Positions 6,204 to 6,489 of a DNA stretch of 13,486 nucleotides are shown here, piece after piece. A program made the translations under genes and the position numbers. Each line of letters begins with the position of its first letter. The first letter of the stretch is position 1. Under the pieces are notes generated by a model. It did no database searches. It was not told where the DNA came from and saw only the letters and a list, made by a program, of their open reading frames with translations. Origin of the DNA: an uncultured archaeon (GTDB lineage Archaea; Asgardarchaeota; Lokiarchaeia; Sigyniarchaeales; SOKP01); contig CAZGJX010000105.1 of assembly GCA_964525635.1 (NCBI GenBank), positions 1 through 13,486 on the forward strand, given 5' to 3'.

Positions 6204-6489
6204 TTGACTCAATATAGATTTAGATTAACGGGTGTTCCACCCGACCAAGCTATTAAGGAAATTGAAGTAGATCCAAATCAATCAATAGCTGAAATCAAGA
6301 AATCCGTACAGAGAGAATATAAACTCAATCCAATCCTCGCAATCCAGTTTATTTTCAAGGGTAAAGTACTTCCCGACGATCTCAAAGGGTTTTTGGCATT
6401 TCCAAGACCCGAGAACATTCGCGAAGATTGGTATCCATCCTAAAAAAGATGTTATAACAGTTATGGCTACACAAGCTGGCGGATATTAA
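6204..6489 (+). CDS. Ubiquitin-like protein, split gene join(6204..6385,6417..6489), 84 aa, C-terminus AGGY
   Basis: Spliced product: MTQYRFRLTGVPPDQAIKEIEVDPNQSIAEIKKSVQREYKLNPILAIQFIFKGKVLPDDLKFAKIGIHPKKDVITVMATQAGGY*. It matches ubiquitin by eye: IEVDPNQSIAEIK vs LEVEPSDTIENVK, FIFKGKVLPDD vs LIFAGKQLEDG, and a terminal diglycine. The GG-bearing exon is in the +1 frame relative to the ORF-track call 6195..6443. Alternative start ATG 6195. Confidence 0.88.
6386..6416 (+). other. Putative 31-nt archaeal bulge-helix-bulge (BHB) intron in mRNA
   Basis: Central 4-bp helix UCUC(6380-83)/GAGA(6411-14), 3-nt bulges AAA(6384-86) and ACA(6415-17), and inner stem GGGUUUUUGG/CCAAGACCC with loop CAUUU. 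Cutting after the second nucleotide of each bulge removes 31 nt and restores the frame. Confidence 0.85.

Follow-up and report, generated by a model that had tools for sequence, protein, structure and literature searches.

A predicted 31-nucleotide tRNA-type intron in the ubiquitin gene of a Lokiarchaeal genome

The ubiquitin gene and its insert

The window analysed here is a whole contig of 13,486 nucleotides from an uncultured archaeon of the class Lokiarchaeia, and its named homologues point to the same group (Lokiarchaeia/Promethearchaeia). Its forward strand carries an interrupted ubiquitin gene near the middle, at 6204–6489. Upstream, 939–2156 (+) encodes a SepSecS/SepCysS-type PLP enzyme that is probably a Sep-tRNA:Cys-tRNA synthase (assigned by eye), and downstream 7590–9668 (+) encodes a 692-residue protein in which repeated PKD-like domains are combined with a type I dockerin at the C-terminus. 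A large gene, probably for a surface protein, runs from 10677 to the contig end and is split by an in-frame TGA at 12384–12386 (+), beyond which the frame continues open. This TGA is a candidate nonsense change, sequencing error or recoding site, and the genome has a tRNA-Sec call.

The ubiquitin gene is composed of two exons separated by 31 nucleotides. It likely starts at TTG 6204, judging by a Shine-Dalgarno-like AGGAG (6190–6194, +) 9 nt before it and by orthologues that begin MTQ or LTQ; ATG 6195 is an in-frame alternative. Exon 1 (6204–6385, +) matches PF00240, is 94% identical to the same-genus orthologues and ends after two bases of a Lys codon. Exon 2 (6417–6489, +) encodes a short helix, the last β strand and Gly-Gly followed by one Tyr, with the stop codon at 6487–6489. 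The insert (6386–6416, +) frameshifts the gene. With the insert retained, the frame opened at 6195 or 6204 ends at a premature TAA (6441–6443, +), giving an 82-residue product that lacks the last strand and the Gly-Gly, and the conserved tail, ending in GG-Y, lies in the +1 frame. All 29 of the best orthologues, including three from the same genus, read DLK-F contiguously and align free of gaps, so that comparison by itself suffices to delimit the insert. The orthologous protein is restored by only two 31-nt deletions, 6386–6416 and 6387–6417, which leave the same spliced sequence. The former restores the conserved 84-residue protein exactly, with 6385 joined to 6417 at the predicted junction GACGATCTCAAATTCGCGAAG. 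An earlier note on this DNA had proposed a frame change after LPDDLK with the remainder in the +1 frame, had expected intronless copies to read DLKF contiguously and had supposed that gene callers would mis-report the gene. The translations and the orthologue alignment bear out the frame change, the intronless copies read as expected, and the gene is indeed deposited as the truncated 82-residue product.

What the earlier note called a probable Asgard ubiquitin-like gene can be named more closely as the Lokiarchaeal ubiquitin. The spliced product is an orthologue of Lokiarch_37670, with the same tail through the Gly-Gly; by eye the two are nearly identical, and the published copy is uninterrupted. 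Lokiarch_37670 is listed as the Loki ubiquitin in the supplement of Hatano 2022 (PMC9192718), and the accessible part of that paper ties ubiquitin to UEV proteins in Lokiarchaeota by two-hybrid assays and contains no intron-related statement on Lokiarch_37670. The gene is found in 135 of 161 genomes of the class, at about 65–100% identity to a same-genus orthologue; in the cultured Promethearchaeum and Lokiarchaeum it appears to be free of introns. The structure modelled for an intact orthologue has a pLDDT of 90 and the β-grasp fold, matching ubiquitin with a TM of about 0.75. Exon 2 supplies its short helix and last strand together with the Gly-Gly; the unspliced 82-residue product should therefore be unable to act as a conjugatable modifier. 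Among the cluster members listed, the N-terminus of this species occurs only in the unspliced product. In another genome, a second ubiquitin copy (L059, G038:C110:6949) lies 3 kb from an intact one and is shortened by about 14 residues ahead of the last strand.

With a clean length of 31 nt, the insert is not the 1-nt assembly indel that the earlier note had allowed for, and the orthologues contain no 10-residue insertion at this point. The identical insert occurs in a Logan contig and in a JGI contig that differs by one base elsewhere (both assemblies may have reads in common with the present one), which makes a simple assembly error very unlikely. An artefact of assembly or sequencing is conceivable in a metagenome-assembled genome whose counterparts may share its reads. 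However, the rest of the genome contains no copy or relative of the insert, nor does the insert duplicate its flanks, and a 13-bp structure pairing with the exon would not be produced by an artefact. We consider the probability of this explanation to be negligible.

The ubiquitin gene is single-copy in the genome (4.45 Mb, 27% G+C, rated 100% complete), which has no intact paralogue of it and three E1-like genes. Since the sole ubiquitin gene is broken by a 31-base hairpin of the type that archaea excise from tRNAs, its mRNA very probably has to be spliced. Alternatively, the insertion might be a recent one that killed the gene, the hairpin being an unremoved relic of the inserting agent. In favour of this, the insert is confined to this species, and a distant second ubiquitin-domain protein is encoded beside an E1-like gene on contig C26. 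The latter (L171:1468–1851) is a 127-residue protein with an acidic N-terminus, directly after the E1-like gene; however, it has no Gly-Gly end, and neither exon of the ubiquitin gene has another lesion. Moreover, third positions of the 10 codons flanking the insert are 60% G+C, versus 26% elsewhere, a gap of a size seen in 0/29 orthologues (the sample being small), which also argues against a dead gene. Over 22 codons, exon 2 shows 11–16 synonymous and 0–1 replacement differences from same-genus orthologues, the synonymous changes being possibly older than the insert. A pseudogene is decidedly unlikely, and further evidence against it comes from other genes, as described below.

Fold at the insert borders

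The transcript around the insert is predicted to fold as a helix flanked by unpaired stretches at both borders. The 5′ strand of an imperfect outer exon-exon helix (6369–6379, +) is followed by the exonic 5′ strand of the central helix (UCUC, 6380–6383, +) and by an AAA bulge (6384–6386, +), within which the cut is predicted at 6385/6386 by the rule established for archaeal introns (PMC2738675). The intron then consists of one bulge base, a 9-bp stem with a 5-nt loop (6387–6410), the GAGA that completes the central helix (6411–6414) and two bases of the 3′ bulge or loop ACA (6415–6417, +), which is part of a predicted 3×4 internal loop and contains the predicted cut 6416/6417. The central helix is Watson–Crick in 4/4 pairs, with pair probabilities of 0.96–0.99. 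In the inner stem, which has one G-U pair and one bulged U, the probabilities are 0.81–1.0, and both this stem (h′) and the AAA bulge are present in the minimum-energy fold. The central helix, the two bulges and the 9-bp stem with its G-U pair and bulged U had been described in the earlier note, together with the removal of 6386–6416 by the EndA rule. That removal not only restores the orthologous protein; of the two possible registers it is the only one with a complete central helix, and it is the one selected by cutting after the second bulge base.

The outer exon-exon helix of the earlier note stands only in part. Its pairs 6374–76/6419–21 are firm (probability 0.98 for 6375–6420) and close the 3×4 internal loop, but A6379–U6418 and G6378–U6419, next to the 3′ bulge, are possible pairs with a probability near zero. 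With direct closure of the 3′ bulge so improbable, the motif is likely to be relaxed and not a strict bulge-helix-bulge (BHB). In the terms defined in PMC6379350, it is probably a bulge-helix-loop form (HBh′/BHL), BHL-like on its 3′ side, as opposed to the canonical hBHBh′.

The motif on its own is not a sufficient guide. An equally good fold arises at a frequency of 2e-6 when random genomic 31-mers are put at the site, 6e-6 when the insert is shuffled and 3.3e-6 per position genome-wide. At a length of 31 nt it matches 29 places in the genome, and a looser motif-only scan of the genome gave no clear excess at 30–31 nt (186 and 180 versus ∼170). The exon-exon duplex energy is unexceptional, being equalled in 5/29 orthologues, and the folding energy of the whole region is unremarkable (z −1.3). 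As the genome is AT-rich, the motif alone does not detect such introns. What counts is its coincidence with the borders of an insert that was found independently.

It is the fold alone that points to the enzyme, which leaves some room for excision from the DNA itself or for a splicing activity different from EndA/RtcB. However, the insert is devoid of coding capacity and lacks terminal and target-site repeats, its geometry is that of an EndA substrate, and at 31 nt it is far below the core of hundreds of bases that a group I or II intron needs; Rfam gave no match of any kind in the window. We find another route of removal barely credible.

Inserts at other sites and in other genes

No second species with an insert at 6386–6416 was found among the 29 orthologues, in a pattern scan of genome contigs or in a class-wide search, and four pattern matches for a same-site insert in metagenome contigs proved to be intronless copies to which the gapped pattern had matched by chance. 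The intron at this site thus has no covariation of its own, and the expectation of the earlier note that intron-bearing orthologues would show a covarying BHB at the same position was not borne out. Inserts are, however, present at other sites of this gene, both in many metagenomic copies and in four further genomes of the class. With codons counted from ATG 6195, they lie at codon 73/74 (30 nt, containing a stop; L062), codon 78 (30 or 31 nt; L055–L057, L121, L123 and L125–L127) and codon 83/84 (29 nt; L119). At each of these sites a register that restores the protein coincides with a BHB-type fold, in which the central helix has 4/4 pairs in seven of eight codon-78 copies and 3/4 in the remaining copies. 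A possible fifth insertion site is suggested by the homologue P0024, in which the frame is lost after FAKVG. Two further candidates, P0003 and P0033, were rejected as intron cases, the former having a 1-nt deletion and the latter an exon 2 that could not be recovered.

The codon-78 inserts, which are the commonest at the other sites, show strong covariation. Across the eight copies, 92% of cells are paired and 9/16 pairs have changed on both sides, compared with 34–56% paired in controls in which the insert was slid. On four of the five measures 0/500 shuffles reached the observed score and on the fifth 2/500 did so, counts that are not probabilities as the copies are related. One pair of the central helix occurs as C-G, U-A or A-U, following the changes at a synonymous exon position.

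The sister inserts also bear on whether the message is translated with the insert retained. A +1 ribosomal frameshift, for example on UUU-U at 6390–6393, or ribosomal bypassing could yield a ubiquitin with 10 additional residues; the U-run is available, and wherever in the insert a +1 slip occurs, no stop intervenes before exon 2. The 10 residues would, however, precede the nearly invariant Phe that opens the short helix, and the match of the borders to the endonuclease rule would be left unexplained. In addition, frameshifting fails for sister inserts of 29 and 30 nt and for those with in-frame stops. The sister inserts are variously in-frame, stop-containing or frameshifting, and excision accounts for lengths of 29, 30 and 31 nt both with and without stops, which frameshifting or translation of the insert does not. 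We therefore regard decoding of a retained insert as highly improbable. Stop-free 30-nt copies are deposited as ubiquitins of 93–94 residues in which the intron is translated.

Inserts of the same design interrupt other genes of this genome. In a motif-blind census, 1.68 Mb of two relatives was compared with the present genome for inserts of at least 12 nt, and BHB pairing was scored at the protein-restoring borders of each. Five gene-breaking inserts were found here in 589 orthologue pairs, and all five are 30–31 nt long with BHB scores of 13–15 of 15; 0/48 in-frame indels scored above 12. In the opposite direction, one such insert was found in the relatives in 615 pairs. The interrupted genes, named by eye on the basis of the reference sequences, encode ubiquitin, an E1-like enzyme (an assignment that was confirmed), a CinA-like protein and two small GTPase-like proteins. 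The insert in the E1-like gene (C178:567, +) is 30 nt, contains a stop and lies in the ATP-binding glycine loop, and the CinA-like and GTPase-like genes are interrupted at C26:35491 (−), C27:33768 (+) and C62:3369 (+). Two genes of the ubiquitin system are therefore interrupted in this genome. Interrupted genes amount to ∼0.8–1% of the conserved genes compared, which is a lower bound since introns common to the compared genomes are invisible to the census. The recurrence of one design, with its borders on the cut sites, in four other conserved genes and at three other ubiquitin sites would be unexpected if the present insert were the relic in a pseudogene that was considered above.

The genome encodes the enzymes that tRNA-type splicing would need. 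A catalytic EndA α subunit (PF01974, with Tyr, His and Lys) is encoded on contig C18 and a full-length RtcB (PF01139) on C119. Within the window, 9984–10598 (+) encodes an EndA paralogue (PF01974) that, by profile and residues, lacks the catalytic Tyr and His and is the probable structural β subunit. This gene adjoins one for a hydrogenase maturation protease, as in relatives. A special tie between the nearby β gene and the intron was rejected, as their linkage is also found in intronless relatives. Two-subunit EndAs generally accept relaxed motifs, although the M. kandleri EndA does not cut a BHL mini-helix (PMC6379350). By eye, several tRNA genes of the genome have hairpin inserts of similar design; an automated catalogue of tRNA introns in the genome returned nothing. 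Dense arrays of 22 and 6 tRNA genes (C54:19098–26273 and C146:5782–8433) are mostly intronless, unlike the scattered interrupted tRNAs, and possibly derive from a virus, a mobile element or contamination of the bin.

Proposed splicing and its parallels

We propose that the 31-nt insert is an EndA/RtcB-spliced intron in the Lokiarchaeal ubiquitin mRNA, with a probability of about 90%. The earlier note had reached the same reading, which now has the support of the insert itself, its borders and fold, the intact exons, the orthologues, the enzyme genes and the recurrence of the design, the splicing being inferred. In the proposed scheme the transcript would fold as a bulge-helix-bulge or bulge-helix-loop, a two-subunit EndA would cleave after A6385 and C6416, and RtcB would ligate the exons. 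The spliced message would give an 84-residue ubiquitin ending in GG-Y, from which a protease would trim the terminal Tyr. Most probably this lineage acquired the intron on its own and tolerates it because the enzymes of tRNA splicing take it out. That ∼30-nt introns have been gained repeatedly in Lokiarchaeia is well supported, and their patchy distribution over shifting sites speaks for recurrent, tolerated gains rather than for a conserved role in regulation. A more far-reaching idea, which we consider unlikely, is that an active process in Lokiarchaeia keeps adding uniform ∼30-nt EndA introns to mRNAs and has here placed the ubiquitin system (ubiquitin and the E1-like enzyme) under regulated on/off splicing of tRNA type; the same distribution argues against the regulation.

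Such regulation would be a prokaryotic parallel to HAC1/XBP1, in which Ire1 cuts two stem-loops in a splicing event that is stress-regulated and conserved. The resemblance lies in a short, non-spliceosomal, frameshifting intron, the pairing of an endonuclease with a tRNA ligase, and a changed C-terminus. In contrast to the regulated and conserved HAC1/XBP1 intron, the ubiquitin site described here is not conserved.

Among the closest parallels is the cbf5 pre-mRNA intron of Desulfurococcales and Sulfolobales (Watanabe 2002; Yoshinari 2006; Yokobori 2009, PMC2738675), which is likewise short, lies within the coding sequence and has relaxed BHB borders. It is cut between bulge bases 2 and 3 (PMC2738675), the same rule as is applied here, by a two-subunit EndA; sizes of ∼30–40 nt occur and gene callers mis-annotate the gene. 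However, the cbf5 intron occupies one ancestral site across two orders, at the codon for the catalytic Asp, whereas the present ubiquitin site is confined to one species, and its splicing was demonstrated by cDNA, whereas that of ubiquitin is deduced from DNA. The gene, the phylum and the position also differ, as do the occurrence of four sites in one gene and of several unrelated interrupted genes in one genome. The ubiquitin intron works like the cbf5 intron but is not homologous to it and is not a member of the cbf5 family. Among archaeal mRNAs, introns beyond cbf5 were only predicted as of 2009 (PMC2738675). A 2020 report on a BHB intron in Haloferax HVO_1309 gives cbf5 as the one further case in an mRNA, which leaves cbf5 as the sole case in a coding sequence (PMC7714728). 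The HVO_1309 intron is also an EndA substrate in an mRNA, but it lies in the 5′ UTR, breaks no reading frame and belongs to another enzyme type and another lineage.

Within the same phylum, non-canonical tRNA introns (PMC11291895; bioRxiv 10.64898/2026.10.13.758758) share with the ubiquitin class their BHB or relaxed motifs, independent gains and two EndA paralogues. They differ in lying in tRNA genes and in their median length of 22–23 nt (given in the preprint), versus the tight 29–31 nt of the mRNA inserts. According to the same preprint, which nowhere mentions mRNA, no Asgard tRNA intron has so far been demonstrated to undergo splicing in an Asgard cell. Introns are unmentioned in a 2026 Asgard review, and no report of EndA-type introns in Asgard coding sequences was found in the searchable literature, which most subscription papers lie outside.

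No link to spliceosomal introns is implied. Endonuclease splicing of an archaeal coding sequence is known from cbf5 only, according to the papers that could be searched, and ubiquitin, if the proposal is true, would add a second case. Public annotation would then be wrong for such genes, giving either truncated products or 94-residue ubiquitins with a translated intron. Within 255 nt the ubiquitin gene has four independent sites of intron insertion and covers all three length phases, and with its intronless sisters it provides a compact test system in which the origin of such introns, and the action of the two-subunit Asgard EndA on relaxed motifs outside tRNA, may be tested.
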